Source: Candidatus Heimdallarchaeota archaeon (GTDB lineage Archaea > Asgardarchaeota > Heimdallarchaeia > Heimdallarchaeales > Heimdallarchaeaceae). Taken from it: a stretch of 19,975 nt of DNA. The position numbers were made by a program, and so were the translations under genes. The notes beneath the pieces are model-generated. The model made no database searches and was not told where the DNA came from. It saw only the letters and a program-made list of their open reading frames with translations. Shown here in pieces: positions 1 through 17,002 of the stretch; within the stretch, counting starts at the first letter, position 1; each line of letters opens with the position of its first letter. The stretch spans positions 1 to 19,975 of the forward strand of contig DXJF01000009.1 in the NCBI GenBank assembly GCA_019057375.1. The letters run 5' to 3'.

Positions 1-2
1 AT

Positions 3-281
3 GATTCAGATACGGATAATGATGGAATGAACGATATAGAAGAGATAGTTTATGGAACAAATCCATTAGTTAATGATGCAAATCTGGATCCTGATGGTGA
101 TGGTTTAACTAATTATGAAGAAGTTACCATCTACTTCACTAATCCATTCAGTTCAGACACTGATGGAGATGGATGGAGTGATTATTTAGAGGTTTTTGGT
201 TTAGGTCCTTTGAATCCTTCAGACCCTAATGATCCAAACAGCGTTCCTTCCACAAGTGGAGGAGGAGGATTTTTCCCATAA
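3..281 (+). CDS. C-terminal fragment of a protein with bacterial/archaeal thrombospondin type-3-like Ca2+-binding repeats (5' truncated by window edge)
   Basis: Frame is open from position 3 (DSDTDNDGMNDIEE). Repeated DxDxDG-x-x-(D/N)-x-x-E...TNP units: DTDNDGMNDIEE..GTNP, DPDGDGLTNYEE..TNP, DTDGDGWSDYLE. The ATG at 27 is internal. Confidence 0.8.
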   Translation, partial: DSDTDNDGMNDIEEIVYGTNPLVNDANLDPDGDGLTNYEEVTIYFTNPFSSDTDGDGWSDYLEVFGLGPLNPSDPNDPNSVPSTSGGGGFFP

Positions 282-303
282 TTCTTTTTCTTTTTCTTTT
301 TTT
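282..303 (+). terminator. Oligo-T archaeal-type terminator
   Basis: TTCTTTTTCTTTTTCTTTTTTT directly follows the TAA at 279-281. Confidence 0.6.
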
Positions 304-457
304 CTATATATAGGGAACCTCTAATGTACCTTGGACTTTAATTCTTGAGTCTCACACTCTTTTGGTTTTTTTTCATTTCTTCCATAATGTAAAAATACCA
401 TTTTCTGCACTATTCTTTTAGAAATAGAATAAAGGAGGTCCAATAACTTCTTCTTGC

Positions 458-1085
458 TCACATCACTCCCTGTAAAAACAAATTATAATTGTACCAAATG
501 AATCTGCAGAGAATAGTATTATCCCAGGTAGAAGAGAGACGGTCTCGTACTACACCCCTTTGAAGCTTTATCAGTCCAAAGACATGTTTGACACTTGCTC
601 TTCTTTCTGGGGGGAGATTGTGACGATAGAGACTAGGATAATGCAGATGTGCTAGGACGATTCTATTATGGGGAGAGTCTGTCCCATGATCCTTCGAATT
701 CTTTTTTGGAGGGATAATGGGATGGAGGGTTTATTATCTGGATACATTCCATATTGCCAACGTAAATCCCCATTTCATATTTTCTGGTTTATTAGACATC
801 CTATTATCTCTTGTTTTGACATCCTATTATCTCTTGTTTTGTAATGTTAATTTTATCTAAAATTTCTTCTAAAGTTTTCCCTGTTCAATCAATTTGGTCA
901 ATGCTAGAACAAATAAACCTTGAGCTCCGTTGCTATTGAGATTATTACAACTTCTCACTTCCTCATCAAGGAACAAGTTTTTCTACTCCTTATGAATGAT
1001 TTATGAATGTCCCCCATGACTCTCCATGTACCCTCAAGTGTAACCCATGTCTGTTAAGTTAACATCTTTCGGTTGTTTTACATAA
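458..1085 (-). pseudogene. Degraded DDE transposase remnant (IS4/IS5-like DDE_Tnp_1 superfamily)
   Basis: Manual translation of minus 730-458 gives TLHPIIPPKKNSKDHG...SLYRHNLPPERRASVKHVFGLIKLQRGVVRDRLSS...WYNYNLFLQGVM*. This matches the IP-x-K-x-N and R-x-x-V-E-H-V-F-G-x-I-K motifs, with the catalytic E replaced by K. The upstream part (731-1085) has stops and frameshifts and a possible D-x-G-Y motif (LTDMGY); its boundary is uncertain. Confidence 0.7.
795..840. repeat. Perfect 23-bp tandem duplication
   Basis: GACATCCTATTATCTCTTGTTTT occurs at 795-817 and 818-840. Confidence 0.97.
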
Positions 1086-1179
1086 ACTTTTATTAGATAA
1101 ATTTCCCGAGATGTGAAGAGATAAATATGAGAGCATAAAACTCAATATTAGCTCTCGAAATTGTAGAAAGGGGAAGAAA

Positions 1180-1509
1180 ATGGGTAAAGTACCAAACGTA
1201 ACTTATGAAGAATTTGAGGAGATTCTAAAATCTGAAACAAGACCGATTATAGTAGATACTTGGGCTGTTTGGTGTGGACCATGCAGATCTATTGAACCAT
1301 TCTTTGAACTATTATTTGAAAAACATGCAACTTCTGTTAGATTCCTTCGCATGAATATGGACGAGGAATCGATATTTGCTCAAAAGTATATGATTGCCAG
1401 TCTTCCCACATTTGTGGTATTCAGGGATGGAAAGCCTTTTAATTCTCTTATTGGTGCTAAAAGAGATAAACTAAAAGATTTAGTTGAAAAAGCTGCAAAG
1501 GGTAAGTAA
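1180..1509 (+). CDS. trxA: Thioredoxin
   Basis: 109 aa with WAVWCGPC active site and IASLPTF cis-Pro motif; purine-rich leader AGGGGAAGAAA before the ATG. Confidence 0.95.
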   Translation: MGKVPNVTYEEFEEILKSETRPIIVDTWAVWCGPCRSIEPFFELLFEKHATSVRFLRMNMDEESIFAQKYMIASLPTFVVFRDGKPFNSLIGAKRDKLKDLVEKAAKGK

Positions 1510-1579
1510 TTACGCAGTTAAGTTTTTAGGCTAGTTTTTTTCATAGTTTAGTGTAAGAGAGACTTACAAGTGAAATTGC

Positions 1580-2206
1580 TTGAGCTTTGATAGAAAGAGA
1601 ATTACCTACCCTTCTGGCATGTACGAGTATTTAGCTAGAAAAGCTAATGCAGCAGTAGGTGAGGCTTTCATTACTATCTCATTTCCTGTTCTGGAGATTA
1701 AATTCCTAAATATTCGAAAAAAAGGCAGTCAGAAAACTATTGATTGGTTATTTGAAGAATTAAGTCAAAGAATTGTAAATATCTCAAAGAAGTATAAACT
1801 AGATTTAGGACAAAGTGCTCAAAGGAGGGATTTGCTGATTGACTATAAAGTTAAGCAACAATTTCATCAGATTAAAATCACAGGTTATCATTATATTCCA
1901 ATTAAATCGTTTGGAAATATTCTAGATATAGTTTTGTGGAGTTATATCATCTTTATAACTGGACATACGACAAGTGAAGATAAAGAAGCAAAGGAACTGC
2001 ATCAAAAGTATTTGGAGAGTTTCGAGGAATTCAAAAACTACTGGAATCGAATGCCAAGAAAGAAATTACCTTTACTAGATGAGAAAGCTTGTTTTATTTG
2101 TGGAAAAGAAGCATTTGCATTAAATGCTTGGATATACAAATCCAAAGGAACAAGTGTGGAGATTTATACTCCAGTTTGTAGAACACATCGAGATAGACTT
2201 ATCTAG
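1580..2206 (+). CDS. Hypothetical protein with C-terminal CxxC-x24-CxxH putative zinc finger
   Basis: 208-aa ORF with TTG start preceded by AAGTGA; CFICGKEA...PVCRTH at the C-terminus. Confidence 0.7.
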   Translation: MSFDRKRITYPSGMYEYLARKANAAVGEAFITISFPVLEIKFLNIRKKGSQKTIDWLFEELSQRIVNISKKYKLDLGQSAQRRDLLIDYKVKQQFHQIKITGYHYIPIKSFGNILDIVLWSYIIFITGHTTSEDKEAKELHQKYLESFEEFKNYWNRMPRKKLPLLDEKACFICGKEAFALNAWIYKSKGTSVEIYTPVCRTHRDRLI

Positions 2207-2350
2207 AAAAATTCATTTAAGAGAGTTTATGATAAGTTGTAGTCACTCATCATCTTAGACAATATATAATCTTTGAACAGTAGAATTCATCCTATTAAGG
2301 TGACATGGTGACAAATAACTTTAATAATTTTGCTCGTTCATTGTAGATTA

Positions 2351-2734
2351 ATGTTAGATTTTATAACTCCAGAAAAGAAGAATGAATTATTAATAGCACT
2401 GCGTGATATTTCAAAAGAATGTAGCTTAAGTGCAATCGCTGTTGTAAGTTCTGAAGGACAAGAGGTAGCTTTCTTTGCTGAGAAAAGTACAGATCAAGTT
2501 ATCATGTCAGCATTAGCGTCAGCTCTCAACTCAGCAGGTCAACAAACTGTAAATCAGATTAAGTGTGGAAATTTGGATCAAGTAATTATTAAAGGATCTG
2601 AAGGGTTTGTTATTCTTCTAAATCTTGACCAATTCATTATTCTTGCTGCATCTAAAGACATTTACACTTTAGCTCTAGCAATGAATGTACTTGGAAAATA
2701 CGGAAAAAAAGTATATCGGATTCTTACGACTTAA
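2351..2734 (+). CDS. Roadblock/LC7 (MglB-like) domain protein
   Basis: Roadblock pattern: helix, AIAVVSSEG, helix with MSALASAL, then LDQVIIKGSEGFVILLNL and a C-terminal helix. ATG 2351 is preferred over TTG 2330. Overlaps the convergent S8 gene by 11 nt. Confidence 0.88.
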   Translation: MLDFITPEKKNELLIALRDISKECSLSAIAVVSSEGQEVAFFAEKSTDQVIMSALASALNSAGQQTVNQIKCGNLDQVIIKGSEGFVILLNLDQFIILAASKDIYTLALAMNVLGKYGKKVYRILTT

Positions 2735-5579
2735 CTCGTTTTTTCCTGGTTATCAACAAATAAACAACACATACTGCTAGAGAAATTTCAACTACTATAG
2801 GTCCCCAAGAAACCTTTGCTAGAATATGAATTCTCCATGAATGTGTACCATATGAGGAACGGATTGCAAGAGTGTGTTCTCCTGGAGAAATTGAATATAG
2901 CGACGGGTCAAAAATGATTAAATATGTTCCATTACCATAATCAATCTTATCATAATTTCGAACTACAATGACATCCCCGTTCTCTACTGTTAAATAAAAA
3001 TCCCAATTGGTTAAGGGTTTATAATTGTTAGCAGCACTTATTGTTACTTCTATAGTGTCTTCTCCCTTTACTACTTCCAAACTAGATATATTATAAGCAA
3101 ATTCAAGATTTGAAACAACTGCTGTACCCATAATATTATGAAGTAATTCTTGATTATCTCCAAAATTTAAAGCAGAGTTCAACACTTTATAATCCATTTG
3201 CAAATTATCATAGAGATATGGAGAATTTAGAAACATTGACAAATCATTTACTGCGACTACTAGCGAACCATTGTTACTTCTATTGTCAGAATAAACAAAA
3301 CGATCAAATATTGTACTATCGGAATCATTTGTTTTTATCACATTAAAAGGAGATGGAATAAAGATCTCTTGCAGACTATTAGGATTTGAAGTCAAAAGAC
3401 GGAAATCTGATGATAAGTTAACCGTTTCATTGATTACTCCTGTTTGACTATAAGTAATGTTAAGTGCTTTAAGAAGGCTATTAAGGCTATCAATATCACT
3501 TTCTTTAGAAGGAAAAATTACTATTGCGCCACCCGAATAATCTTCTTCTGGATAGATGTAATCTAAAATTGCTGAAGAATCCAAAGAGGAGAAATTATGA
3601 AGAAGTGAACTATTATGGTTAATTAAAGCTATAACTTCGTAATTATTGAGATTCAGTTGATTTAGATGGAAAACATTTTCATCTCTTCTTAGTATTTCAG
3701 GAATCAACCCATAGAATCTAGCAGTATCTAGAAAATTGTTCAGATTACCAAATAACGAGAAAAACTTCTCATCTCCAACCTCATTACAGTCAAATAATAT
3801 CCTCCCTTTTCCAACTCTTATGTGAAGGTTAACATCTACAGGATAAATTTGATCATCGATTATGAAATCAAGATGACTACTTATGGGTCCCGTATACTGA
3901 TTCTCTGATGAAATTTCCACTAGAATATCGTATTGACCGATTTCATAGTCCGCTGGTATGTTGCTTAACGATAGTAACTCACTTAATACTACTGAATACT
4001 CTACTCTTAAATTATCAATTTCCTTGTTGATAAACAGATGAATATAGAATGATTGCCTTTCATTTTTGAAAAATACTTGTCGGATATAGGGTAAATCTGA
4101 AGGCCAGATGGTTATACTTTGTGGATGCTGTAAGTAGTATCTTGCTTCACTGGCATCTACTAATCCAGCTCCTTGATAAACTGGTGGTACTAAGAGGCTG
4201 ATATATTCTCCAAAAGGAGATAGATAATCTATTGTTAATGGATCCGAAGTTTCAAGAAGTGCAGCTTTCAAAATTGATGGTTTATAATCAGGATAAATTT
4301 GCTTTAATAACAAACACATTCCAGACACTACAGCTGTTGAATAACTTGTACCTGTTACCGTGGTTGATCCTTGTAAATTAGTAGAAGTAGTATTTAACAA
4401 AACACCCGGAGCAACAACATCTGGTTTTAACCAAGTATTTTCTAAATCTACCGAGTCAAAAAGAAAATTCTCTGAACTCACATTATAATTTTCTGCTACA
4501 GGACCAGCACTACACTCCTCGAATAAAATTATGTTATTATCTATAGCTCCCACTGTAATAGCCTGCATAGCAATTCCCGGACTTAAAATAGTATATTTAT
4601 CATTATAACCAAATTCAGAAATTCCACGTGAATTGCCTGCAGCTACACAAACCACAACTCCATTTCTTACTGCACTATTAACAGCTTCAACCTCCGGAGA
4701 TTCTTTATTCGATACTTCTTTTCCTAAAGAGAGATTTATTACATCTGCCCCGTTTTCTACAGCCCAATCAATTCCCTCAATTAAATCTTCAATTGAACCT
4801 GTAGCATCGTAGGAAAGAATCTTACCGACTAGAAATTTGCAGTTAGGGGCTACTCCGCGATCATATCCATATAATCCGTTACCACCAATTATCCCAGCAA
4901 CTTCTGTACCATGTCCATTATCATCTTCAACTTTAGCATCATTATCAATGAAATTCTTGCTGTCTATTATTCGATTTTCACCATCCATACCTACATCTAG
5001 TGCTGGATGATCTGTTTTTATTCCTGTATCCAGAATTGCAACTACTGTATCATTTCCGAAATATCCTAAATTCCAAAGGGCTTGAGAATGGATTTTGCTA
5101 TTAAAATCATCTATGTCTCTACTTAAGTTTAAAGAAGCCAGATGAACATCTGAACTAGCTGCTCTAATCCTTGAGTTTTTCCATACTGAAAGTATATTTC
5201 CCCTACTTATCTGGTGCAACAATGCATCTTTTGAAATTGTTAAAGCAATCCCTTCAAATGTTTCAAAGAATTTGAGATCTTTTCCCACAATTTTAAGAGA
5301 ATGAATAGCTTCTTCATTTTTAGTCTTTACTAGAAGTCTAAAGAAGTCATTATTTTTCGAATGAAGAATTTCATCTAGGAGAAAATTCTCTTGAAAGATA
5401 TTTGATAATTTATTGGCATCATTTGAAAGATTTAGAAAAGAATCATCAATTGAATGACTATAGGAAGTATAAGAAAACAAGCATAAAGTAATAATTAGAA
5501 AACCTGAACATTTTGTAAATAGGAGGGGAATTTGTTTCACATAACAAGTTTTACAATTTAAGTATAAAAATTTAAGCAC
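2724..5579 (-). CDS. Secreted, C-terminally membrane-anchored S8 (subtilisin-like) serine protease
   Basis: Catalytic motifs ILDTG (D), HGTEVAG (H), AAGN (oxyanion N) and GTSYS (S). N-terminal hydrophobic signal and propeptide; C-terminal TM WGPIVVEISLAVCVVYLLIT followed by RKKRVKS; many N-x-S/T sequons. The true start may be GTG at 5540 (MKQIPLLF...). Confidence 0.93.
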   Translation of the reverse strand: MLKFLYLNCKTCYVKQIPLLFTKCSGFLIITLCLFSYTSYSHSIDDSFLNLSNDANKLSNIFQENFLLDEILHSKNNDFFRLLVKTKNEEAIHSLKIVGKDLKFFETFEGIALTISKDALLHQISRGNILSVWKNSRIRAASSDVHLASLNLSRDIDDFNSKIHSQALWNLGYFGNDTVVAILDTGIKTDHPALDVGMDGENRIIDSKNFIDNDAKVEDDNGHGTEVAGIIGGNGLYGYDRGVAPNCKFLVGKILSYDATGSIEDLIEGIDWAVENGADVINLSLGKEVSNKESPEVEAVNSAVRNGVVVCVAAGNSRGISEFGYNDKYTILSPGIAMQAITVGAIDNNIILFEECSAGPVAENYNVSSENFLFDSVDLENTWLKPDVVAPGVLLNTTSTNLQGSTTVTGTSYSTAVVSGMCLLLKQIYPDYKPSILKAALLETSDPLTIDYLSPFGEYISLLVPPVYQGAGLVDASEARYYLQHPQSITIWPSDLPYIRQVFFKNERQSFYIHLFINKEIDNLRVEYSVVLSELLSLSNIPADYEIGQYDILVEISSENQYTGPISSHLDFIIDDQIYPVDVNLHIRVGKGRILFDCNEVGDEKFFSLFGNLNNFLDTARFYGLIPEILRRDENVFHLNQLNLNNYEVIALINHNSSLLHNFSSLDSSAILDYIYPEEDYSGGAIVIFPSKESDIDSLNSLLKALNITYSQTGVINETVNLSSDFRLLTSNPNSLQEIFIPSPFNVIKTNDSDSTIFDRFVYSDNRSNNGSLVVAVNDLSMFLNSPYLYDNLQMDYKVLNSALNFGDNQELLHNIMGTAVVSNLEFAYNISSLEVVKGEDTIEVTISAANNYKPLTNWDFYLTVENGDVIVVRNYDKIDYGNGTYLIIFDPSLYSISPGEHTLAIRSSYGTHSWRIHILAKVSWGPIVVEISLAVCVVYLLITRKKRVKS
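5563..5570 (-). promoter_or_regulatory. Putative TATA box of the S8 protease gene
   Basis: TTTTTATA on the minus strand, 23-30 nt upstream of GTG 5540, the spacing expected for a leaderless archaeal transcript. Confidence 0.45.
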
Positions 5580-5583
5580 GTTA

Positions 5584-5700
5584 TGAAACTTGGCTAGACT
5601 AGCCAGAAGGCGTCTAACTGTCGTTTAAATGGGTCCCCTACACGTGCGTTGAGGGGAAGGAATCTTTAGGAAGGAGTTTACCTGAGAGGGAGGAAATATT
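5584..5700 (-). ncRNA. Candidate omegaRNA/reRNA scaffold and right end of the TnpB-like element
   Basis: Hairpin TCCCCT..AGGGGA (5634-5657) spans the stop codon; hairpin TGGCTA-GTC-TAGCCA at 5591-5605 is followed by AGTTTCA. The layout resembles IS200/IS605 right ends. Boundaries are inferred. Confidence 0.55.
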
Positions 5701-7566
5701 CCATGCAGCATTTTTATGAGTATTAACTTGTTGTCCACACTTATTACAAGGAGCAATATCATACTGACCAAGTTGACGAGTAAGGACTCCCCCACATCTA
5801 TGATGGGATGTGCTAGTGTTATAAGGAAGAACTTCCTCTAGTTGTACATCATAACCTAATTCTAAGGAGGCTAGCCAGACAGCTTTTTTATAAATGAAGA
5901 TACCATCAGGCATGGTGTAAATAGCCTTAGCTAATGCACCTTTAGTTCCAGTAGGATCTGCATTAAGTCTTTCAATCTTGAGTGTTTGACATTTCTTTTT
6001 CACCATCACTGCTGCAAGAAAATGTGGAAGAAGACGAAGGATTTCTCGAAGGATCCTGCTACGACGAGTATGCACACGATTAAGTTCTCCCTTCAGTTTA
6101 CAACACCCTCTGACATCATGTTCTTTTCTCTTACGGAGCAATCCTCGAGTTAGCTCGGGAAGAACTTTCTCGCTCAGATGAGTATAATGTTCTGCTAATC
6201 TTAGCAAATCTTGAGGGAGACTAAGAGCAGCATTGAACATAACCATATACTGCCCTAAACGATTGATATCTATCCCAAGAACTGGTGATTTTCCTCTAGG
6301 AATATTAGCTAAATAAGTGTGGAGAAGAGTACTGGAATGGAAACAGACATGTGTTCCTTCTAGCACCACATCCACACGAGGTTTGAAACAAGGGGCATGT
6401 CCACTACTCACTTGGAAGACTCTGATATGAGCACCATTTTGGAGATAATCTAGAACTTTGGGAGGGAATTGAACTACAGCTGTGAGTTTCTTCTTTCCTT
6501 TCTTTGGAAAGCCTAGTTGGGTCCATCCATGTTTCTTAACTTGATTGGTGAGGTCTTGAGCATTCCCTTGACGGGTAATAACATAGTCTTTTTTCATGTG
6601 TAATTTAATGGGTAGATTTCCTTTCTTCTTTCGTTTATATGGGAGAGTAACAACTGCTGTAGCTGGAATGACCTTGATTAACTGAGGGACACTCTGCATG
6701 AAATAATCAAAGAGTGTGAAAACTACTATTAAGCGCAATGCTGAAAAGAGTTTTCGGGTAGGTTTTCCTATTACAATAGCTAGTTGTTCTGCGAGAGTTT
6801 TGAAACTTTTCCAACGAGAACTCTGAGGACTGCTAATCCATGAAGTGAGAAAGGGAACAATAATATTCTGTTCTTTCTTTAAGAGTTGGAGTTTTTCTAG
6901 AAACGCTTTCTGATTCTTCTTCAATTGTGGAAAGAGGGAAAATTTATGGTTGTGGTAAAACAGTGCATCATCAATAGCTTGGACAACTTCAAGTTGAGTA
7001 CATGTTGGAAGGAAGGCGTTTAATTGTAAGAACTTGGGAATATTGTATTTCTTTTGCTTTTTTCTCCAATAAGAATCGGTCTGTGCCCTAGTACTTGTCA
7101 GAAGATTAATTATATATCTTCTTCTTACTCTCCAATGGTTCTGCAAACTACGTTCAGTATAAGGAGAACGACTGAAAATCAACCATTCTATCAGTTGTTG
7201 AGGATTCTTCAATAAAAAGTTGAATAATCCTTGTACTTTTCGTTCTTTGTCAACTTTCCCCTTGATAGCAATGTGAAGCCAATGAAATGCACTTTGAGCA
7301 ATATTGGGGCTTTTCCCTACTTCTTTACAGAGTTGTTGAGTGAAGAATTTTTCTCTAGGTTTTCTTTGATACAACTCCACAGCTTTCTTTATAGTTCGAG
7401 TAGTAAGCAGTTTATGTTGTCTTTCTTCTAACTCTCTTATTCGTTGATTAATCTCTTCTCGTTGGTGTTGGTCAACACATTTTAGTACTACTTGATAACT
7501 TCTCATCACTTTCTCTGAAGGAGAAGAGGTATGTGCTTGTTTCTTACTTGATGCTTGTGTGACCAA
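5638..7566 (-). CDS. tnpB: Large TnpB/Cas12-like RNA-guided RuvC protein with RuvC-III Asp replaced by His
   Basis: RuvC-I VLGIDIN (D433), bridge helix, RuvC-II LKIERL (E532), VLPYNTS, Zn site HHRC...CNKC (588-610), RuvC-III NTHKNAAWNI (H617 at the D-x-N-A-A position). Likely start is ATG 7506 (MRSYQVVLK, a WED beta1-like strand). Confidence 0.88.
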   Translation of the reverse strand: MVTQASSKKQAHTSSPSEKVMRSYQVVLKCVDQHQREEINQRIRELEERQHKLLTTRTIKKAVELYQRKPREKFFTQQLCKEVGKSPNIAQSAFHWLHIAIKGKVDKERKVQGLFNFLLKNPQQLIEWLIFSRSPYTERSLQNHWRVRRRYIINLLTSTRAQTDSYWRKKQKKYNIPKFLQLNAFLPTCTQLEVVQAIDDALFYHNHKFSLFPQLKKNQKAFLEKLQLLKKEQNIIVPFLTSWISSPQSSRWKSFKTLAEQLAIVIGKPTRKLFSALRLIVVFTLFDYFMQSVPQLIKVIPATAVVTLPYKRKKKGNLPIKLHMKKDYVITRQGNAQDLTNQVKKHGWTQLGFPKKGKKKLTAVVQFPPKVLDYLQNGAHIRVFQVSSGHAPCFKPRVDVVLEGTHVCFHSSTLLHTYLANIPRGKSPVLGIDINRLGQYMVMFNAALSLPQDLLRLAEHYTHLSEKVLPELTRGLLRKRKEHDVRGCCKLKGELNRVHTRRSRILREILRLLPHFLAAVMVKKKCQTLKIERLNADPTGTKGALAKAIYTMPDGIFIYKKAVWLASLELGYDVQLEEVLPYNTSTSHHRCGGVLTRQLGQYDIAPCNKCGQQVNTHKNAAWNISSLSGKLLPKDSFPSTHV

Positions 7567-7600
7567 CTTACTTTCACTAGTAGGTATATCCGCAAAATGA

Positions 7601-7608
7601 TATTTAAA
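7601..7608 (-). promoter_or_regulatory. Putative TATA box for the tnpB-like gene
   Basis: TTTAAATA on the minus strand about 35-42 nt upstream of the TTG at 7566; palindrome GAGAAA-A-TTTCTC (7613-7625) lies just upstream of it. Confidence 0.45.
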
Positions 7609-7762
7609 GGGTGAGAAAATTTCTCTAAAGAGTTGTTTTTCCTATTTTGCTTAATTTGTTTCTTTCTTTTTTCTTCTTACTCTGAAAAACCTTTTTGATC
7701 GCTTTCTCCCTCTTTGTAAGATTTGATAACTTTTTACTACTCAGTAGTTTAAGGTGAAGTAC

Positions 7763-8599
7763 CTAATTGAAATCATTAACAGCATCTTCGAGATTGTTGA
7801 TAATTATATCTGGTCCACTGTCCTCTTCCAAATCTCCAAGATCATTCATTGATGTTACACCAGATAGAACTAAACAAGAATTTATCCCTGCTTTATTAGC
7901 TCCATATATGTCTGTTTCAATTCTATCTCCAAACATTATTGAGAGGTCCTTCTTCGATTCAGCTATCGATATTGCTGTTTCATACATTAAAGGAGCAGGT
8001 TTTCCAATAATAATTTCAACAGTCCTGTTAGATAATGCTTCAAGCATTGCAATCATTGCTCCTCCTCCCGGGATTAGACCTTTAACCGTTGGGAATGTAA
8101 AATCTCCATTTGTTGCTATGAATTGAACATTTTTATAATTTACAAGTATATGAGTTGCTCTAGCTATTTTCGTGTAATTAAAATTTCGATCCATTCCAGT
8201 AATAACATAATCAATATTGTCAAAATTTAAATTGAAAATATCTTCATCATTTTTCTCTTCCCAATTATTAACAACATCCAAACCCGCAAGCAATAGTTCT
8301 TGTTTCAAACCTTGCTCCCCAATAACATACACAGAAGAGTTTGGGGCTTTTTGTTTCAAATATTCAGCTGTTAAAAAGGCTGAAGTTAAAATATGATTTA
8401 CAGGTAAAGAAATACCCAAGTTCTTTAGTTTTTCTTGGAATTCTTCTCGTGTCTTTGTACTATTATTAGTTAAAATGAAAACTTGCTTGTCCTTCTTTTC
8501 AAGCAAGTGTAAAAATTCCATGGCTCCTGGAAGAGGTGAATTTTCTTTATACAAAACTCCGTCTCCATCAAAGAGAAAGGTTTCAAAAATCTCAAACAT
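7763..8599 (-). CDS. HAD superfamily subfamily IIA (NagD/phosphoglycolate-phosphatase-like) hydrolase
   Basis: Motif I FDGDGVL, motif II LTNN, motif III GKP, motif IV GDRIETDI; AGAGGA before the ATG. Confidence 0.93.
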   Translation of the reverse strand: MFEIFETFLFDGDGVLYKENSPLPGAMEFLHLLEKKDKQVFILTNNSTKTREEFQEKLKNLGISLPVNHILTSAFLTAEYLKQKAPNSSVYVIGEQGLKQELLLAGLDVVNNWEEKNDEDIFNLNFDNIDYVITGMDRNFNYTKIARATHILVNYKNVQFIATNGDFTFPTVKGLIPGGGAMIAMLEALSNRTVEIIIGKPAPLMYETAISIAESKKDLSIMFGDRIETDIYGANKAGINSCLVLSGVTSMNDLGDLEEDSGPDIIINNLEDAVNDFN

Positions 8600-8744
8600 T
8601 AGTATCCTCTAATATTCTATTAATATATTATATAACAGTTTTTGAGAAAGAGGATTTTAGAAAAACAAAGAGGATACAGACAAAAGATACTATACTTAAA
8701 CTAATTTCCAAACTTTTTTTATAGACCGAAGATATTGGTAATTC

Positions 8745-10247
8745 ATGTCATATGTTGAGAAAGCTTTCTATAAATATATCAAAAATATCTTCACTAGTGG
8801 TTTTAAAGTACTTTTCAGCAAAAGATATATCTTTTACACTTTAGCTTTTGTTTTGATTAGTCTAACAACTACAATCTTCTATCTAATTCGTAAAAATGTT
8901 GAAGTTGGTCCTCCTGGGGCACTGAAGATAATAGCTAATTTACTTATAGCAATAGAGTTGTCTGTAGCTATCACATACGTGCTGTTCGGACTATTTTTCT
9001 CAAAATATCCATTGAAATACTGGGTTCCTCCAGCAATATTATCTGCAGTAGGTGGAGCAGCATTGCTTTACTTCGTTCCTATTCTTTCGCCTTATATCGC
9101 ATCAATTTGTTATTTTAGCTGGATAATTGTATCTATATTTCTAACATTTTCATTATCAAGAAATTTCTGGGGAAGTAAGGTTTTAGGAAGTATTATGTTT
9201 CTTGGAAAACCAGCAGATGAAGGAACAATTATATTCAGTGGTATTGCGTTTTTCTTCTCATTAGTTAATTCTGTTTTGGCTGGTTATGTTATCTATGATT
9301 CCGTTAAAAGGTTCCTAATATCACAAATAACAGCTGAAACCATAACTAGCTTTGTCTTTACTTTAATGACAGTCTTATTTGCACTTCTAGCCATAATTCT
9401 GGTTAATCTCATGATTTTTGTTTGGGGAAAGAAGGATGATGTTTTTTACACAATTTTAGCATTCTTCTATGTTTTTTCCTCATTTACATTATGGAAATAT
9501 GCACTTTACACATTCCAAAATAGAGCGGAAACTAGCATAATCCCATATGATAATGCAGGAAGTATAATTATTGCTCTCTTCTTCATTTTCTATACTGTTT
9601 CTAGTTATGGGAGAAAAGTAAAAAAAATAGAGAAAGGTGAAGCTAAGGAAATGACCCTATCTATTGATGAATCAACTAAGAGTGATGATATCATTGAAAC
9701 TGAAGCTGAGGAGGATTGGTATTTATTGAAAATTCCCAGATTCATGGGTCCTTTAGGAGTTCTAATTACTTTAATGGGATTGGTTTTAGGATATCATGTA
9801 ACTATCCTTCAGTTTATTGCTACTGAAGATCTCTTTACTCAAACCTTTTTCTCACTAAATGATCTGGTTGGCTTAAAGGATAAAATAGCAATTATTCTTT
9901 TACCTCTTATAATAATATTCTTCCTATTTAGTTACAAATGGTCTTCAAGATTTCGTAGATATTCATCACCTGAACTATACAGATTTGAATTTCTACCATC
10001 ATTTGAAGAATTAGAAGAAAGATTGGATAGAATCAGACGTGGGGAAGATTCATGGAAAGATTACGCAAACATGGTAATTAAGGAGGGGATTAAAATAGGT
10101 GCTAAATCTGCAGCAAGAAAGGTTTTTATAACCCCTACCAAAAAAGTTGCAGGAGCTATTGGTGGAGCTTACTCTAAAACGAAAAAAGGAGTTTCTAAAG
10201 GCTTTAGAAAGGTTTTCAGAAGAAAACCTAAAGATAAAAATGATTGA
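8745..10247 (+). CDS. Polytopic membrane protein of unknown function
   Basis: 500 aa with roughly 10-12 hydrophobic segments, an acidic cytoplasmic loop and a Lys/Arg-rich C-terminal tail. TTTTTATA lies about 25 nt upstream of the ATG. Confidence 0.85.
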   Translation: MSYVEKAFYKYIKNIFTSGFKVLFSKRYIFYTLAFVLISLTTTIFYLIRKNVEVGPPGALKIIANLLIAIELSVAITYVLFGLFFSKYPLKYWVPPAILSAVGGAALLYFVPILSPYIASICYFSWIIVSIFLTFSLSRNFWGSKVLGSIMFLGKPADEGTIIFSGIAFFFSLVNSVLAGYVIYDSVKRFLISQITAETITSFVFTLMTVLFALLAIILVNLMIFVWGKKDDVFYTILAFFYVFSSFTLWKYALYTFQNRAETSIIPYDNAGSIIIALFFIFYTVSSYGRKVKKIEKGEAKEMTLSIDESTKSDDIIETEAEEDWYLLKIPRFMGPLGVLITLMGLVLGYHVTILQFIATEDLFTQTFFSLNDLVGLKDKIAIILLPLIIIFFLFSYKWSSRFRRYSSPELYRFEFLPSFEELEERLDRIRRGEDSWKDYANMVIKEGIKIGAKSAARKVFITPTKKVAGAIGGAYSKTKKGVSKGFRKVFRRKPKDKND

Positions 10248-10272
10248 GATAATTCCTAATTATCTCCTCTTT

Positions 10273-12441
10273 TTATGTGGTTTTAATTTCTAATTCGGAT
10301 ATATGTTCAATAAAGAACTTCATAACTTTCTTTCTTACTCCCGCATAGAATTTAATTGAACCTACAACTTCGTGCCCGCCACCCTCAACATCGGCTTCAG
10401 GAATTTTGCTTTGCATTAATTTCACAGCATTGGGGAAATTTATTACAAGTCCCTTAGAACGAAGAATTATGAAGTCTGGACCTTCTCCAAGAGTAACCAC
10501 AGCTTTATCAGGATTTTCATGACAATGATGATCGAAAATTAATCCTGTTAGTTTACCAGGATTCGGGAAAGTAAATCTATGCGTATACATCTCTACATCT
10601 ATAGTTACCAGTAACACACCATTTGTTAGTTCCTTGACCTTACTATGAGGAAGAGCATTCTTATACGCTTTATCCATCATCTCTCTTGTTTCTCTTCCGA
10701 TTAAAGTGTACATCTTTGTATGCCATTCTGCTGGAGTATCAACACCAAATAAAATTTTCATAAGATTTTGTCCTTCCGAAAATCTTAGTTGATATACTTC
10801 ATAGTCCACAGCTATACCAATATTCTTCAGATCATCTATTGTATAATCTTTGGATTCAGCTAACTTGATGTATTGCTCCAGTTCTTTTCCTTCAACTCTA
10901 TCCATCAACCCTGCAATTGCTGGTAGATGTAGTAAATCATCATGGATACTAGAGCAGATTATCCTAGCTAATTCAAAACCCAACATACCAGCTGATAGTT
11001 CATATCCTCCACCGACGAAATATGGATTTACATGTATATCTACTAAATCTTTGATTTCTTTATCGGGAAAATGGTGATCTATTACAATTACTTCTAAATC
11101 TAGTGATTTAATTTGTAAATAGGGGAAGAGAGATTCAGTACTCGATCCAAAATCTAAGCACACGAATAAGGGTAACTTGTCACCAAATCTTTCCTGATCT
11201 GCTAATGCAAAGTCAAGATCTTTTGTAACGTCAATAGCATCATAGAATGGTGGTTTATTAGGTAGGCGTTTCAACCTCACCCTTATTGTATCGGCATCAT
11301 ACCCCTCTTTTTCCATCAAGTTTTTGATAGCCATCTTGACTGCAAATCCTGCAACTGTACCATCAGCATCAGCATGATTTCGTATGATTATGGGTTGACC
11401 TGTGTAAATGGCTTTCCTAATACGTTTAGCAGCTTTAGTAAGGTCTGGTCTAAGTTTTTCTAGAAGCTCACTTTTAATCGAAAAATCTATTTTTTGAGGA
11501 GTAGCTTTTTTATCTATGGCTTTCTCGATTTCTTTTACTAAAATAGAACTCTCAGCTGCATCCAAAGTTTCCATATCTTTTATTTCAATTTGTAAAATAT
11601 CTCTATGTTTATTTATTTCTCCGAAAATTGCTACAACCGTATCTTCTTCAATTTCTGGAAATGCTCTTTCTCCGGGTTTAATGAATGCAGCACCATTAAT
11701 TGAACCAGTTTGATCAACAAGAGTAAAACGAGTGGGTCCCGATGTTTGTAAAACAGAAACAACTTGTGCATTAAGAGAGATAAAGGAACCTTCCATGTCT
11801 TGATTCAGGTTATTAATTTGAAGTTTTCTTACTCTTCCTCGTAAAGATTCTATTGCATAATCATCTATATTCTGAGGAATACCAAAAAGTTTTCCTTGAT
11901 CATTTATGAAATTGACTTTAACAATTACTTCCTCTCCAATATCCCATGCATAGTCTTGAGTTACATCTTTTGTTCTTATTAGAACATTCGAATCAGGTGC
12001 AATTTGAACAAAAACACCTACTTTTTTCACTGCATCAACTCTAGAAAGAATTAACATTCCTGTTCTAACTAGTCGTGAATCAACGGGGGGTTTTAAACTA
12101 TAAACAACTGGAACTTTCGTTTTCTCACAACTACTACATATGCCAGAAGAAGTTGGTTCTTTTATTATTTTCATGCAATTTGAACATAATTGAACTGATT
12201 TGTTTCCTCCACATGTTGGACACTTTTCACGTAAAATGATTTTTCCTGTTCCTTGGCATTTCTCACAAGCTTGTCCTTCTTTAGTTTCACCTAGTGTGAA
12301 GGCTGTTTTACCTATACCTAAACACGATGGACAAGTCATTTTTTCCTTTATAATCTTTCCTCGACCTTTACAAGTGGGACATTTTGAACTCAAGATTTTT
12401 ACACCTATATTTAATAATAGACTAACGAAACAAAAATTCAA
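10273..12441 (-). CDS. Archaeal RecJ-like DHH phosphoesterase with DnaJ-type Zn finger, S1 and OB folds (COG1107, HAN-like)
   Basis: CxxCxGxG repeats (CPTCKGRG, CPSCLGIG, CEKCQGTG, degenerate CPTCGGNK); S1-like VGVFVQI; OB fold; HADADG, LDFG, IDHH and GGGH (DHHA1) motifs. Likely start is TTG 12393 after AGGTG. Confidence 0.9.
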   Translation of the reverse strand: MNFCFVSLLLNIGVKILSSKCPTCKGRGKIIKEKMTCPSCLGIGKTAFTLGETKEGQACEKCQGTGKIILREKCPTCGGNKSVQLCSNCMKIIKEPTSSGICSSCEKTKVPVVYSLKPPVDSRLVRTGMLILSRVDAVKKVGVFVQIAPDSNVLIRTKDVTQDYAWDIGEEVIVKVNFINDQGKLFGIPQNIDDYAIESLRGRVRKLQINNLNQDMEGSFISLNAQVVSVLQTSGPTRFTLVDQTGSINGAAFIKPGERAFPEIEEDTVVAIFGEINKHRDILQIEIKDMETLDAAESSILVKEIEKAIDKKATPQKIDFSIKSELLEKLRPDLTKAAKRIRKAIYTGQPIIIRNHADADGTVAGFAVKMAIKNLMEKEGYDADTIRVRLKRLPNKPPFYDAIDVTKDLDFALADQERFGDKLPLFVCLDFGSSTESLFPYLQIKSLDLEVIVIDHHFPDKEIKDLVDIHVNPYFVGGGYELSAGMLGFELARIICSSIHDDLLHLPAIAGLMDRVEGKELEQYIKLAESKDYTIDDLKNIGIAVDYEVYQLRFSEGQNLMKILFGVDTPAEWHTKMYTLIGRETREMMDKAYKNALPHSKVKELTNGVLLVTIDVEMYTHRFTFPNPGKLTGLIFDHHCHENPDKAVVTLGEGPDFIILRSKGLVINFPNAVKLMQSKIPEADVEGGGHEVVGSIKFYAGVRKKVMKFFIEHISELEIKTT

Positions 12442-12468
12442 TATACAAAAAAATTATGTTGTAAGAGA

Positions 12469-12867
12469 TTAATCTGGAATTAAAGCTATTTCACTGAAAT
12501 TAAGTAATCTAGTGAATATTAGATTGCTTATTTCTAATTTTAGTTTTTCTGAACTATCTTCAAATCTTTCTGCAGCACTATAGATTTTCATTGAAAGATC
12601 TGCATCTCCAAAAACATAATGTACATAGAAAGCTAAATCACGAGTTCCTGCATCGTCGGAGTCATCACAAGAACATACATGAGCTTTGATTATTTCAGGA
12701 CCTAGGTCCAATACGCACTCATATAATTCTTCTAATGTTGAACTGGAACAAAGAACACCTTGTGTATCAGGTGAAATAAATTTGAACCTTTCATTTGGTC
12801 CTTCATCACCACTAGCCATTTTAGCTAGTACTTTAAGAGTAGTTAAATCCACAGCTTTCAACCTCAT
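12469..12867 (-). CDS. DUF5752-like small protein
   Basis: F-x-F ... S-x-x-L-E-E-L ... I-x-x-H ... D-L-A-x-Y-V-x-x-V-F-G-D-x-x-L pattern resembles DUF5752 as I recall it; not confirmed by search. Confidence 0.55.
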   Translation of the reverse strand: MRLKAVDLTTLKVLAKMASGDEGPNERFKFISPDTQGVLCSSSTLEELYECVLDLGPEIIKAHVCSCDDSDDAGTRDLAFYVHYVFGDADLSMKIYSAAERFEDSSEKLKLEISNLIFTRLLNFSEIALIPD

Positions 12868-12874
12868 TTCTTGT

Positions 12875-13252
12875 TTAACTTATCATCATTGGAGTTAGTT
12901 GTTGCAGTAATCGTTTAATGTTGTGTTCTAGAAGACCTCTGTTTTCTTCCTTGGTAGTTATAATTACTGCGTAATACTCATCACCAATTGGACGAAGATA
13001 AACAAAGTGATCTTTTTCTTCAATTGTAACACTCATCAAAGTAAATTCTTTCATTAATTGTTGGAGTGATTCCTTAGCTAGAGAAAGCATCTTTTCACTT
13101 AACCATTGAATAACAAGTCTTTCAAATTTTTGGGATGATTCTGCTAATAATAAGGCATCTTTAGCATAGATAATTGAACAACCCAACACTCCTTCTGTAT
13201 TAGATTCAAATTCATGAAGCATTTTTTCTATTTGTTGACCAGACAGACTCAT
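12875..13252 (-). CDS. Roadblock/LC7 domain protein
   Basis: EGVLGCSIIYAKDALLL, helix, SVTIEEKDHFVYLRPIGDEYYAVIIT, RGLL helix. ATG 13252 is preferred over TTG 13264. Ends 7 nt before the next gene. Confidence 0.82.
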   Translation of the reverse strand: MSLSGQQIEKMLHEFESNTEGVLGCSIIYAKDALLLAESSQKFERLVIQWLSEKMLSLAKESLQQLMKEFTLMSVTIEEKDHFVYLRPIGDEYYAVIITTKEENRGLLEHNIKRLLQQLTPMMIS

Positions 13253-13409
13253 CTTATACACCAATATCTTTGGGTAAGTAGTATTTCTAATAGTATATCA
13301 ATCTTATCTTTATTTTTGAATGTTCATTCAGTGATAGAATAAGGATTTAGTATATAAACTAACAATTTTAGAAAGAAAACTTCTTGTTGAATCAGAATAT
13401 TGAGAATTT

Positions 13410-14336
13410 CTATAACATTCTCTCAACAAACATAGAAATTCTACTCATGTGAGGAGACATAGATTCTAGTTCATCTCGAAAACTGCTAAAAACAATAGAT
13501 TTTGAGGTTTGATTCTTATTTATATAAACCAAAACCCAGTATGATTCATCTCCCACTGTAATTGATTTAATTAGATTTTCTGAAGATTCAAAATCGATTC
13601 TAATTTCTGAAGGATTGGCCAGAAGGTATTTTATTACAGGATATATATCAGAAAATATTCGTCTACTAAAAACAAATGAAAAAAGCTGATCATCCTTTGC
13701 GACTGCAAATAAACTTGAAATTAGTTTCTTATACCCCAAGAAGAAATTTGTTAAAGATTTCTTAATACTATTAATTTTATCTCCACCTAATTTTTCTTCG
13801 TCAGTTAAAACCTCAACGTAGAATTCTTCCATTTTGACTGTTGGGATAGAAATTCCAGGGAGTGGCAAAGATTCTTCTGTAAGTACTTCATTACCAATAG
13901 ATTCCTCAGGTTTTTTCTGCCCTTTTCTTCTTATTTCTGCAACTAAATCTAGAGGTATGATTGTATCCCCTATATCAAACAAAGAAGAAATTTCACTAAT
14001 AGATTTATTTTCTGTCAAAATTTCATATCTAAGAGAAATATTCTGAATAAGTGCACTTTCAATTTCTTTGCTTAGGTTTTCTTTGGTGATTATAACAAGC
14101 AATTTTTCATCATGAAGTTCTGCAAAAAGAAATTTGCTTGTGCCAAAATCTATTGACACAACCTCTTCATTACCTATAGCATAAGTATAGCTGTACAGTG
14201 CCGATATGAATCCGAATACTAATACATCATCTATATTCAAGAAATCTGTAAATTTTTCAGTAAATATACTAACTCCTTGATCTATGACTTGGATTGAGAA
14301 AATCTTCTCTTTGTACTTGGAAATATCAGCACTCAT
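13410..14336 (-). CDS. Longin-like domain protein with a second alpha/beta (roadblock/profilin-like?) C-terminal domain
   Basis: N-terminal IFSIQVIDQGVSIF...LVFGFISALYSY...SIDFGTSKFLF...LLVIIT matches the Asgard longin-like pattern. An acidic/Pro linker precedes the C-terminal domain of about 120 aa. Confidence 0.65.
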   Translation of the reverse strand: MSADISKYKEKIFSIQVIDQGVSIFTEKFTDFLNIDDVLVFGFISALYSYTYAIGNEEVVSIDFGTSKFLFAELHDEKLLVIITKENLSKEIESALIQNISLRYEILTENKSISEISSLFDIGDTIIPLDLVAEIRRKGQKKPEESIGNEVLTEESLPLPGISIPTVKMEEFYVEVLTDEEKLGGDKINSIKKSLTNFFLGYKKLISSLFAVAKDDQLFSFVFSRRIFSDIYPVIKYLLANPSEIRIDFESSENLIKSITVGDESYWVLVYINKNQTSKSIVFSSFRDELESMSPHMSRISMFVERML

Positions 14337-14368
14337 CTGATAGAGATATAGTAAGAGGATTTTTATTC

Positions 14369-14911
14369 TTATTGTTGTTTTTCACTAAAAAAATCAGCGA
14401 TTATTGATTGGGAATAGAAAGTAAGCCCAACAGATTCTAAATTTCTTTGAATGTAATCCTGTGTGGATGAGAACAAGTAAACATTCCTCTTCCAAATTTT
14501 TTCCAAGTCTTTATTGTCAGGAAAACTTCGATTTTTTCTCCAATTCTTTCTTCTGTTTTTATAAATTCCATAATCTTTTAAGAGAACCAGATACCCTATG
14601 AAAGTAACCTTCTTTGAAACATGAGGAAATTTCTTTCTTTCTAGTTCTCGTAAAATCAATATTCTTAGATATTCATTTAGTTGTTCTAGAAACTTATCTT
14701 CATTTCCTGCTGTTACTTTGCTGTAGTGTTTTGCTTCAAAAACAATATAGTATGTTTTATCTCTAATAGATCTTTTAGCTAATATATCTATTCTCTTATT
14801 CTCAATCCTTCTCTCTTCCCAAACCTCAAAACTGTTGTTGTGTAAAAAATGTGCTATTGAACTTTGAGCTACCCTCCATTCTTCGGTAGTATTTTCATTA
14901 TGGAGATTCAT
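14369..14911 (-). CDS. PD-(D/E)xK restriction-endonuclease-fold nuclease
   Basis: WEE...RIDILAK...VFEAKHY gives an intact E-D-ExK set. ATG 14911 overlaps the TPR stop as ATGA; the ORF track start is 14926. Confidence 0.8.
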   Translation of the reverse strand: MNLHNENTTEEWRVAQSSIAHFLHNNSFEVWEERRIENKRIDILAKRSIRDKTYYIVFEAKHYSKVTAGNEDKFLEQLNEYLRILILRELERKKFPHVSKKVTFIGYLVLLKDYGIYKNRRKNWRKNRSFPDNKDLEKIWKRNVYLFSSTQDYIQRNLESVGLTFYSQSIIADFFSEKQQ

Positions 14912-16683
14912 ATAGAGTTTTCCCATTCTTCGAATCGTGCAGCTGTTTTATAATCTTTATTCTTTATAGCAATGTCCTTTGCTTTGTTATAACAATCCTT
15001 AGCTTCATTCTTAAGTTTCAGTTCTTCATAGAGTATACCTAGATTAGCCCAGGAAATGGCTTTGTTTGGTTCGATATCAATAGCTGTTTGATAAGCATCT
15101 ATTGCTTCATCATACCTCTTTAATTCTTTCAAAACATTACCTAAATTGTTTAAAGCTGCATGATCTTCAGGATTTAACTCCAATACTTTTTTGTATGTTT
15201 CTTCAGCTTTTTTGTAAAGTGATAATTCTTGATAAGCTAACCCAAGATTAAACTGTATCCTAGAATCATCAGGATCGAATGATATTACTTTTCTGAAAGC
15301 TTCACTGGCACCAAGATAGTCTTTAGCTCTCATAAGGAGATCACCAATTTTATTCCAAAGAGTAGTTTCATCCCAAGGGAGATAAGAAGATACCATCTTA
15401 AGAATGCGAACTAATCGCTTATCATCATGAAGCACAGTCAAAATTGAAGTAATTTTCTGAAGATACTTTTGAACTTCTTTACCAGACATCAGTAATTCTT
15501 CATAAATGCTTATAGCTTCATCCACCCTACCCATTCTTTCATAAACCAAAGCCAAATTCTCCAATATTCCAGTATTCTCAGGAAATTTTGATACCCCAAT
15601 CTGGAGTATTTCCAGAGAATTATCATATTTCTTTCTACTGATTAACCCAGTTACGAATCTAACAATGGCTTCAGCTGAAGACATCAATTGAATTTGTTTA
15701 ATAAAATACTCATATTCTCCCATAGATTCAATAGTTGCTATAGCTTTTCCAGCTAAAGTCCAACTTTCTAAACATGCTGGATCCAGTGTTAAAGCGGTCT
15801 TAATCGCTTTGATTGCTTGTTCATCTTTATGCTGAGCAAAGAAGCAATCAGCTAATTCATTCCAGTACTCAGGTATATCATTTTTAATCTGAAGTGCTTT
15901 CTTGAAATGTTCTTCTGCAATGAGATAATGTTTGCCTTCAAATGCTGCTTTTCCTGTGAAAAATAATATTACATGGCTATCTGGTTGCTTAAGAACTACG
16001 CTTGAAAAGAGAATAAAGGCTTCATCAGTATTATTATTTGCTAAAGCTTCTTGACCGTTAACAAAATCTTTGATTGCGTATAATTCTCTTAATTCATGCT
16101 CAAATTGCTGTTTCAATTCAGTTGAAGTCTGAGCTCTTCGAGTTAGAGATTTCAAAGATTTTGGCAGAGGATAAGCAGTTGAAATATTCAATATCCTGTA
16201 TGCATCAGATGTTGAATCTTTTTTCTCATTATTTGAATGTTCTATAAATTCTGGACGAAGCCTAAGATAACAATCCATCGCTTCCTCATGTTTACCTTGA
16301 AGCATGAATATTGACATCAGGTTTGCCCAAGCAAATTGGTTGTCTGGATTGTAATTAGACAATTTACGATAAATTTCGATTGCCATATCATATTCTTTAA
16401 TTTCAGTTAAAAGATTAGCTAATATAATAACTTCATCTTCACGATCATAAGGTAGTTTGGTGATTTCTTTTTTCAGTACTTTCTTTATTAAATCAAAATT
16501 GTCTGTAAACTCTTTAAGAAAAATATCATCCTCAAATTTGAATAAACTTGAAGTAATTTCACCAGGAGGATAACTTGCATATATTCTGCTGGTTGAATGT
16601 ACAATTTCAGAAGCTATAGTCTCCAATAGGAGGGTAGTATTTTTCAACATCTCATTTATTGTTCTAATATTTTCTTGTGTCAT
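14908..16683 (-). CDS. Tetratricopeptide repeat protein
   Basis: Many 34-aa TPR units, e.g. AWANLMSIF..QGKHEEAMDCY, FNLGLAYQELSLYKKAEETYKKVLELNP, LNNLGNVLKELKRYDEAIDAYQTAIDIEP. Confidence 0.93.
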   Translation of the reverse strand: MTQENIRTINEMLKNTTLLLETIASEIVHSTSRIYASYPPGEITSSLFKFEDDIFLKEFTDNFDLIKKVLKKEITKLPYDREDEVIILANLLTEIKEYDMAIEIYRKLSNYNPDNQFAWANLMSIFMLQGKHEEAMDCYLRLRPEFIEHSNNEKKDSTSDAYRILNISTAYPLPKSLKSLTRRAQTSTELKQQFEHELRELYAIKDFVNGQEALANNNTDEAFILFSSVVLKQPDSHVILFFTGKAAFEGKHYLIAEEHFKKALQIKNDIPEYWNELADCFFAQHKDEQAIKAIKTALTLDPACLESWTLAGKAIATIESMGEYEYFIKQIQLMSSAEAIVRFVTGLISRKKYDNSLEILQIGVSKFPENTGILENLALVYERMGRVDEAISIYEELLMSGKEVQKYLQKITSILTVLHDDKRLVRILKMVSSYLPWDETTLWNKIGDLLMRAKDYLGASEAFRKVISFDPDDSRIQFNLGLAYQELSLYKKAEETYKKVLELNPEDHAALNNLGNVLKELKRYDEAIDAYQTAIDIEPNKAISWANLGILYEELKLKNEAKDCYNKAKDIAIKNKDYKTAARFEEWENSI

Positions 16684-17002
16684 TTAGCTTCCCAAACCAG
16701 ACTATTTGTTTTCCCCCTATGTTGTAAATGACCCCAACCAGAGGTTTGTATTAGTTTCTAACTAATCACTTTGAAATAGCTCTTCATTACTCGTTTTATT
16801 TAAACATTGCTAGTTAATTTCTGATCACTAGTCTAGTTTCAATAATATAATTCACATGGGTATTTATTAATTTAATCTTCTAAAAAAATGGAGTTCGTGC
16901 AAAAAATCGAATTTCCAACTATTTCTTAATCATCTGTTTTACGTTTTATCTACTCATGCAATAAAGCTTATATGGACTCTCATAAACAAAACAAAGACAC
17001 TT

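Follow-up and report, generated by a model that had tools for sequence, protein, structure and literature searches.

A gene that resembles both TnpB and Cas12, is longer than typical TnpB and stands among housekeeping-like genes raises the question of whether it is a host gene, a CRISPR effector or part of a mobile element. We addressed this for a gene on the minus strand, at 5638-7566, of a 19,975-nt stretch of DNA from a Candidatus Heimdallarchaeota archaeon (GCA_019057375.1, contig DXJF01000009.1, positions 1 to 19,975), hereafter the window. An initial annotation, made from the sequence without database searches, had presented the gene as a stand-alone TnpB/Cas12-like effector. The window, its source genome (G000; 159 contigs, 89% complete) and related genomes were compared, and the gene is very probably a large histidine-variant tnpB of an IS607-family insertion sequence (IS) that was stripped of its transposase gene, tnpA, by internal deletion; the homing mechanism described further below belongs to this reading.

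The gene lies inside a 2,177-bp inserted element (5574..7750, minus strand), read here as a tnpA-deleted IS607-family IS; five other genomes of the genus lack it at the orthologous position. In these empty sites (G009:C148, G013:C169, G018:C279, G006:C45 and G010:C6) both flanks are contiguous and 73-94% identical to the window. The left end (7716..7750, minus strand) carries the motif ACTGAG...AAAGTTATCAAATCTTAC, which recurs upstream of tnpA in autonomous copies of the element and at the start of the short non-coding mini-elements described below. Over ~33 left and ~55 right ends, the junctions followed the rule ...ACC / GT-N5-ACTGAG ... GTGC / GT-flank, with GT at the start of most of the left ends and after the right end in most copies. 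Comparison of three empty and occupied pairs showed that ACC is part of the target and that the two junctions share only a dinucleotide (GT; TT in the window). Neither terminal inverted repeats nor a target duplication beyond this 2-nt core was seen at the three loci compared. IS607 elements likewise have no inverted repeats and no duplication and exchange strands over 2 bp, the core of IS607 being GG (PMC6188088). The window copy has the hexamer CTTAAA at each of its junctions, and the empty sites have a single one. This suggested a 5-6-bp target-site duplication, which was rejected because three mini-elements with identical first 5 nt differ in their 3' flanks, and because the mini-element on contig C81 has only GT in common with its empty site. 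The limits of the element (7750 to 5574), as well as the start of the guide at 5573, were set by the convention used for IS607 and the Clostridium botulinum element CboIStron.

Directly 5' of the left end stands the motif ACCTT (7751..7755, minus strand), whose last two bases are the core dinucleotide and which was already present in the relatives' empty sites. The family consensus is ACCGT, and ACC followed by GT was found upstream of ~24 of the ~33 left ends. This target motif is likely also the target-adjacent motif (TAM) of the TnpB protein, because the TGGG target of CboIStron serves as its TAM too, and in that element the core dinucleotide forms the end of the RNA scaffold (bioRxiv 10.1101/2023.11.20.567912). 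A further copy (G000:C145:~92700-92790; L066) has its left end directly against a tRNA gene that lies on the other strand.

The link to a transposase was established in sister genomes. Open reading frames (ORFs) of 196-200 amino acids (aa) that combine a MerR-type helix-turn-helix (HTH) with a resolvase domain precede the same tnpB on its strand by 50-110 nt. This tnpA adjoins tnpB in G032:C28, G034:C37, G005:C71, G001:C16, G008:C48 and G017:C117 and is intact in the first five of these, and decayed remnants of it stand beside further tnpB copies. In two remote members of the family, P0133 (682 aa) and P0150 (708 aa), a 207- or 227-aa MerR/HTH_17+Resolvase gene comes directly before the tnpB gene, and a query of this type matched 16 of the 24 further genomes of the genus. 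All tnpB copies keep an archaeal TATA box, TTTAAATA in the window (7601..7608, minus strand), ~35 nt upstream of the start codon, where it presumably acts as the promoter of tnpB. Autonomous tnpA ends with GGAAAAGCACCACC just before this box, and the window has GGAAAAACAACTC at the same place, within a degenerate spacer (7610..7715, minus strand) that occupies the position of tnpA. Because the end of the autonomous gene is still recognizable as a remnant at about 7630-7642, the window copy appears to be a tnpA-deletion derivative. It is probably immobile now unless tnpA is supplied in trans, since no IS607-type tnpA was found in the source genome. Four resolvase-type recombinases of that genome (on C56, C127, C16 and C118) were considered as partners and rejected; their catalytic domain comes first, with no N-terminal HTH before it, and none is near any TnpB gene.

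The copy number and synteny of the gene also contradict the description of it as stand-alone. Besides lying in an insertion that five congeners lack and having relatives joined to tnpA, the gene is accompanied in its genome by ~10 full-length paralogs: seven at 69-75% protein identity (two with a stop codon) and three at 41-44%, in addition to one fragment. DNA similarity among the close copies begins ~100 nt before the ATG and breaks off abruptly 62 nt beyond the stop codon, at ...CATAACGTGC. Non-coding mini-elements of ~320-350 bp are also numerous in the genus; they have the IS607-type left end, their own TATA box, an unrelated middle part of ~130 nt, and the same last ~90 nt with the guide-RNA core and right end. 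Examples are G000:C81:24423-24740, G000:C65:8485-8836, G000:C49:36429-36733 and G000:C40:1-144, with more in the genus (L040-L058). Two mini-elements also have empty sites in relatives, and the one on C65 splits a short-chain dehydrogenase gene of which three relatives have intact versions. The mini-elements resemble parasites of the TnpB elements that consist of guide RNA only. The source genome additionally contains about eight classic TnpB genes of ~420 aa and about six of 520-570 aa (on C47, C124, C116, C146, C94, C75, C66, C92, C65, C79, C72, C80, C81 and C63), and therefore several TnpB lineages coexist in it beside the large type.

The end of the element that lies 3' of tnpB has the properties of a guide-RNA scaffold, known in TnpB systems as omegaRNA. 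Its last ~90 nt (5574..5661, minus strand) are ~90% identical among copies, compared with ~75% for the ORF. The predicted fold consists of a stem over the stop codon (5634-5657), two nested stems (5623-5626/5586-5589; 5592-5619) and a pseudoknot (5643-5647 with 5576-5580) in which the first hairpin loop, GCACG, pairs with the last five bases, CGTGC, all on the minus strand. The structure was tested with 47 distinct sequences, 25 pairs, 500 shuffles and slid controls. In this alignment 98.4% of cells were paired and seven pairs had changes on both sides; none of the 500 shuffles scored as high, and the slid controls fell to 21-47% paired. The pseudoknot helix showed double changes in three of its five pairs (e.g., GCTCG/CGAGC and GCACA/TGTGC). 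Synonymous divergence (dS) is lowered in the last 45 codons of tnpB, and in ~55 copies conservation halts sharply at the right end, so that the conserved structure overlaps the 3' end of tnpB and stops at the transposon boundary. The same core is present in the mini-elements. Rfam gave no family match within the window. We infer that the 3' end of the element encodes an omegaRNA, which would be transcribed and processed.

The first ~20 nt after the right end (5554..5573, minus strand) would then encode the guide, a role that is predicted from the TnpB/IS607 model (bioRxiv 10.1101/2023.11.20.567912). The flank belongs to the promoter or 5' region of an S8 protease gene. Specifically, at 5541-5579 (minus strand), the 951-aa S8 subtilase ORF has a mechanically assigned GTG start (5579), which falls inside the right end of the element. 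The true start is consequently more probably an ATG ~35 nt further downstream, and the element would therefore sit in the promoter/5' region of the protease gene, which the predicted guide covers.

The tnpB ORF itself is real, open and intact, and encodes 642 aa from a TTG at 7566 or 622 aa from an ATG at 7506. The codon at 7566 is ATG, GTG or TTG in sister copies, with the same codons following it. The 642-aa form is the probable real product, because this start is kept among the copies and stands ~35 nt after the TATA box. Signals of TnpB/Cas12f type in the protein sequence were weak but consistent, and all of them were in the C-terminal third. The Pfam Cas12f1-like TNB domain (PF07282) matched at 1.2e-6, above the cut-off, and the Protein Data Bank (PDB) entry of CnCas12f1 (8hr5) at 3.9e-4 with the single sequence and at 5.7e-7 with a family profile. 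Modelled with AlphaFold2 from 36 family members, the protein reached a pLDDT of 91 and a pTM of 0.81. Foldseek matched this model only to Cas12f, TnpB and other Cas12 structures, with Cas12f and TnpB at the top (probability 1.00), and VIA gave Z scores of 14.3 for ISFba1 TnpB (342 residues aligned), 13.1 for AsCas12f, 11.9 for ISDra2 TnpB and 11.8 for the Fanzor2 structure 9b0l, the last being no higher than for bacterial TnpB or Cas12f. The modelled protein can be assigned with confidence to the TnpB/Cas12f architecture, with its WED-REC-RuvC-TNB fold, and the absence of a RuvC/WED fold, which the initial annotation had named as a ground for rejecting it, was not what we found.

Cas12f proteins are among the best matches by sequence and by fold, as could also be expected of a type V CRISPR effector whose array lies beyond the window, an explanation to which we give almost no credence. 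TnpB structures match equally well or better, ISFba1 TnpB having the highest Z score given above, and an omegaRNA-type scaffold is fused to the 3' end of the gene. Inspection confirmed that the window contains no tnpA, no cas gene and no CRISPR-like array, and no cas genes were found among the neighbors. The ten copies are dispersed, and the single Cas1 of the genome, on contig C8, stands beside none of them. A link to the Asgard Cas1 (aCas1), which is known for two Asgard TnpB groups, was rejected on the same ground.

The unusual length of the protein resides in its REC lobe. In the model, residues 13-285 form only helices, between a strand at 2-9 (MRSYQVVLK) and one at 300-302 (LPYKRKK), and only ~340-350 of the 622 residues superpose in VIA on TnpB and Cas12f chains of 360-420 aa. 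These two results place the extra ~200 aa in the REC lobe, where they had initially been placed from the sequence. The expanded lobe corresponds to 6619..7479 (minus strand), or residues 10-296 of the 622-aa form. Modelled alone, it had a pLDDT of 94 and 14 helices, and comparison with the PDB gave a best Foldseek E value of 0.5 and a best VIA Z score of 6.3, within the noise of helical proteins. On the modelled structure it is a family-specific helical lobe, and the absence of relatives is no proof of a new fold.

An enlarged REC lobe, together with the housekeeping-like neighbors and the absence of tnpA from both window and genome, would favor the initial suggestion of a domesticated, host-recruited TnpB derivative, or of an intermediate on the way from TnpB to Cas12 with a function in the host. 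We consider this very improbable. It is already contradicted by the empty sites of five congeners, and the gene occurs in multiple copies with transposon ends and with tnpA adjacent in sister genomes. Nor was support found for an intermediate: the window has neither an array nor a cas gene to connect the gene with CRISPR, and its REC lobe has no detectable structural likeness to other lobes, those of Cas12 included. The evidence is instead accounted for by the IS607-family IS.

Residue conservation was examined across 36 family members at 22-77% identity. The RuvC-I aspartate, D413 (6268..6270, minus strand), is invariant, as is N415, down to 22% identity. E512 (5971..5973, minus strand), the RuvC-II glutamate, is also invariant and aligns to the catalytic glutamate of CnCas12f1. 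The third position departs from the canonical D-E-D triad in 36 of 36 members: H597 (5716..5718, minus strand), within an N-T-H-x-N-A-A-x-N-I motif, stands in HMMER alignments opposite the RuvC-III aspartate of N-A-D-Y-N-A-A in 8hr5. The TNB zinc finger, HxxC...CxxC (5737..5805, minus strand), coincides with the PF07282 match; its ligands H568, C571 and C587 are invariant, and C590 is kept in at least 90% of members. The invariance of the three RuvC residues and of the zinc ligands therefore defines a family with a fixed D-E-H triad and an HxxC..CxxC finger. D583 is nearly invariant and may be a relocated carboxylate.

Histidine is a metal ligand in other nucleases of the RNase H fold. We incline to the view that a TnpB with this D-E-H triad cleaves DNA, while binding without cleavage seems rather unlikely; of all parts of the proposed mechanism, the nuclease activity is the most conditional. 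We think it less likely still that the histidine abolishes cleavage and that the protein acts as an RNA-guided DNA binder of the TldR, Cas12k or Cas12m-like kind, serving regulation or aiding the transposon in some other way. Such a binder would explain why the RuvC-III aspartate is a histidine in every member, and the recruitment of inactivated TnpBs for binding is documented (PMC10691335). However, the RuvC-I aspartate and the RuvC-II glutamate are invariant, the single change is always to the same metal-binding residue, and Altae-Tran et al. read conserved single catalytic replacements of this sort as retained activity (PMC10691335). The copies are, moreover, mobile and multicopy and have differing flanks as guides. 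TldR-type repressors, as Wiegand et al. 2024 are said to have reported, are immobile and carry fixed guides aimed at promoters, whereas the gene studied here is multicopy and recently mobile, with a different guide flank at every copy.

A word-indexed search returned 124 relatives of the protein, every named one from Heimdallarchaeota or Heimdallarchaeaceae, and an exhaustive search of 1.84 billion proteins matched only 151 representatives. When the phylum was sampled evenly, the family turned up in 10 of 121 genomes, mostly within the window's own taxonomic family. Judged by sequence, the family is a distant outlier among TnpB. The proposal of an undescribed Asgard clade thus holds in part: the proteins form a clade of unusual size, enlarged in the REC lobe and restricted to Heimdallarchaeota, but "undescribed" could not be upheld because Altae-Tran et al. 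2023 (PMC10691335) list branches with a RuvC-III Asp-to-His replacement and rearranged archaeal branches associated with serine recombinases. Literature searches returned no papers specific to TnpB in Heimdallarchaeota. The tnpB family is under purifying selection. Pairwise ratios of nonsynonymous to synonymous divergence (dN/dS) among the intact paralogs of the genome were 0.11-0.18 for the whole protein and 0.09-0.19 for the REC lobe, which is as constrained as the rest. Some metagenomic relatives (P0156, P0173, P0184, P0189, P0190 and P0182) are 1,200-1,800 aa long with the TnpB-like core at the C-terminus; two of them have faint MazE/AbrB-like matches mid-protein, and these long proteins may be fusions or mis-called genes.

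The features described above suggest how the complete element could work. In sister genomes its order is left end, tnpA (MerR-type HTH and resolvase catalytic domain, ~200 aa), TATA box, tnpB (622-646 aa) and right end. TnpA would cut the element out as a circle and join it to new sites of ACC/GT type by strand exchange over the 2-nt core, with no duplication. The tnpB transcript would end in ~90 nt, namely the end of the ORF and 62-64 non-coding nt, that form the pseudoknotted omegaRNA scaffold, and the flank adjoining the right end would supply the guide. TnpB with its omegaRNA would then recognize the vacated, scarless donor joint by the TAM-like ACCGT followed by a match to the guide, and most likely cut it, upon which the element would be copied back in. 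The occupied site would be spared, as the right end reads GTGCGT in place of the NACCGT of a target. Homing and retention by TnpB have been shown experimentally for other IS607 and IS605 elements (bioRxiv 10.1101/2023.11.20.567912).

A number of results weigh against reading the gene as part of such an element. The query that found tnpA in sister genomes detected no IS607-type tnpA in the 89% complete source genome, and no Y1 transposase of the IS200/IS605 type was found there. The NCBIfam model guided_TnpB (NF040570) matched at 7.7e-6 with 25.4 bits, below its cut-off of 100. The RuvC-III catalytic aspartate is missing, and the literature searched yielded no bench-tested TnpB with a histidine at this position. 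Two further points concern the window copy itself, namely a variant stem in its scaffold RNA and the non-consensus TT as its core.

Within tnpB, an internal stretch at 6546..6846 (minus strand; ORF nt ~660-960) showed extra synonymous conservation. Third-position identity was 0.68-0.78 there compared with ~0.55 elsewhere, and a block of ~45 nt was without variation across 24 aligned copies. No conserved overlapping ORF was found in this stretch, and a sense or antisense RNA structure was unconvincing, with a low consensus energy and a covariation term of only -1.5 kcal/mol. Its core, TGTCCCTCAGT, recurs in mini-elements and, when reversed, resembles the left-end motif ACTGAGG. The region could be a TnpA-binding repeat like those at IS607 ends (PMC6188088), or a second RNA element. 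A more far-reaching version of the IS607 interpretation combines these features: an active D-E-H nuclease with its own enlarged REC lobe, approaching Cas12 size and using ACCGT as its TAM, with mini-elements exploiting it in trans and 6546-6846 as a second RNA or DNA site. We put this forward only tentatively. If true, it would mean that expansion towards Cas12 size took place inside a transposon lineage with no CRISPR involved.

Known IS607 elements and their TnpB/omegaRNA systems, namely H. pylori IS607, CboIStron and ISFba1 (PDB 8iaz), share most of the organization seen here. The gene order in both is tnpA (a serine recombinase with an N-terminal HTH) followed by tnpB, and both lack terminal inverted repeats and target duplication, with a 2-nt core common to ends and target. 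The target motif lies just 5' of the left end and likely doubles as the TAM, the guide-RNA scaffold overlaps the 3' end of tnpB and stops at the right end, and tnpA-less and miniature derivatives exist. The Heimdall-group element differs in its core (GT, or TT in the window, instead of GG) and target (ACCGT instead of (T)GGG), in the length of its TnpB (620-700 aa compared with ~350-450 aa) with a REC lobe of its own of ~290 aa, and in having a D-E-H instead of a D-E-D triad and an HCCC instead of a CCCC zinc finger. It has no group I intron, and its range is limited to Heimdall-group Asgard archaea. A second set of relatives is found among the branches with a rearranged RuvC-III of Altae-Tran 2023 PNAS (the Asp-to-His clade RIIIr-4 and the archaeal Ser-6 and RIIIr-6; PMC10691335), here compared by branch descriptions only. 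As in those branches, a RuvC-III histidine is conserved and the other catalytic residues are kept, and the archaeal ones are likewise associated with serine recombinases. In contrast to RIIIr-4, which is said to be without a zinc finger (PMC10691335), the Heimdall family keeps its HCCC finger. With Cas12f (CnCas12f1, 8hr5; AsCas12f, 8dzj) the protein shares the WED-REC-RuvC-TNB architecture, a similar size and the best sequence-level PDB match, but it lacks the context of a CRISPR array or tracrRNA, is borne by a transposon together with an omegaRNA, carries the histidine variant, and has a REC lobe that is unrelated at a detectable level.

The element represents a distinctive form of a mobile, RNA-guided system that is already known, and both histidine-variant TnpBs and archaeal TnpBs linked to serine recombinases have been catalogued before (PMC10691335). 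What appeared to be an orphan "Cas12-like" gene has become a delimited Asgard IS607 element with ends, a target motif, a guide-RNA scaffold and non-autonomous derivatives. This makes several questions testable: whether a RuvC site with histidine in place of the third aspartate cuts DNA, whether an enlargement of REC that is usually framed as a step from TnpB to Cas12 occurs and functions inside a plain transposon lineage, and which target rule (ACCGT with a GT core) is common to an archaeal IS607 transposase and its TnpB. The present picture of TnpB biology is unchanged, and the data held no evidence for a special link between Asgard archaea and eukaryotes through Fanzor.

The other genes of the window agree with the housekeeping-like neighborhood that was initially described, and include the S8 subtilase, a HAD hydrolase, a DHH/OB protein, a TPR protein and an XPD helicase. 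The sole tandem repeat of the window is a perfect 2 x 23 bp repeat at 795-841, which is intergenic. At 10273-12441 (minus strand), a 722-aa protein combines a DnaJ-type CXXCXGXG zinc finger with an OB fold and a DHH domain, a RecJ/GAN-like architecture with an unusual N-terminus.

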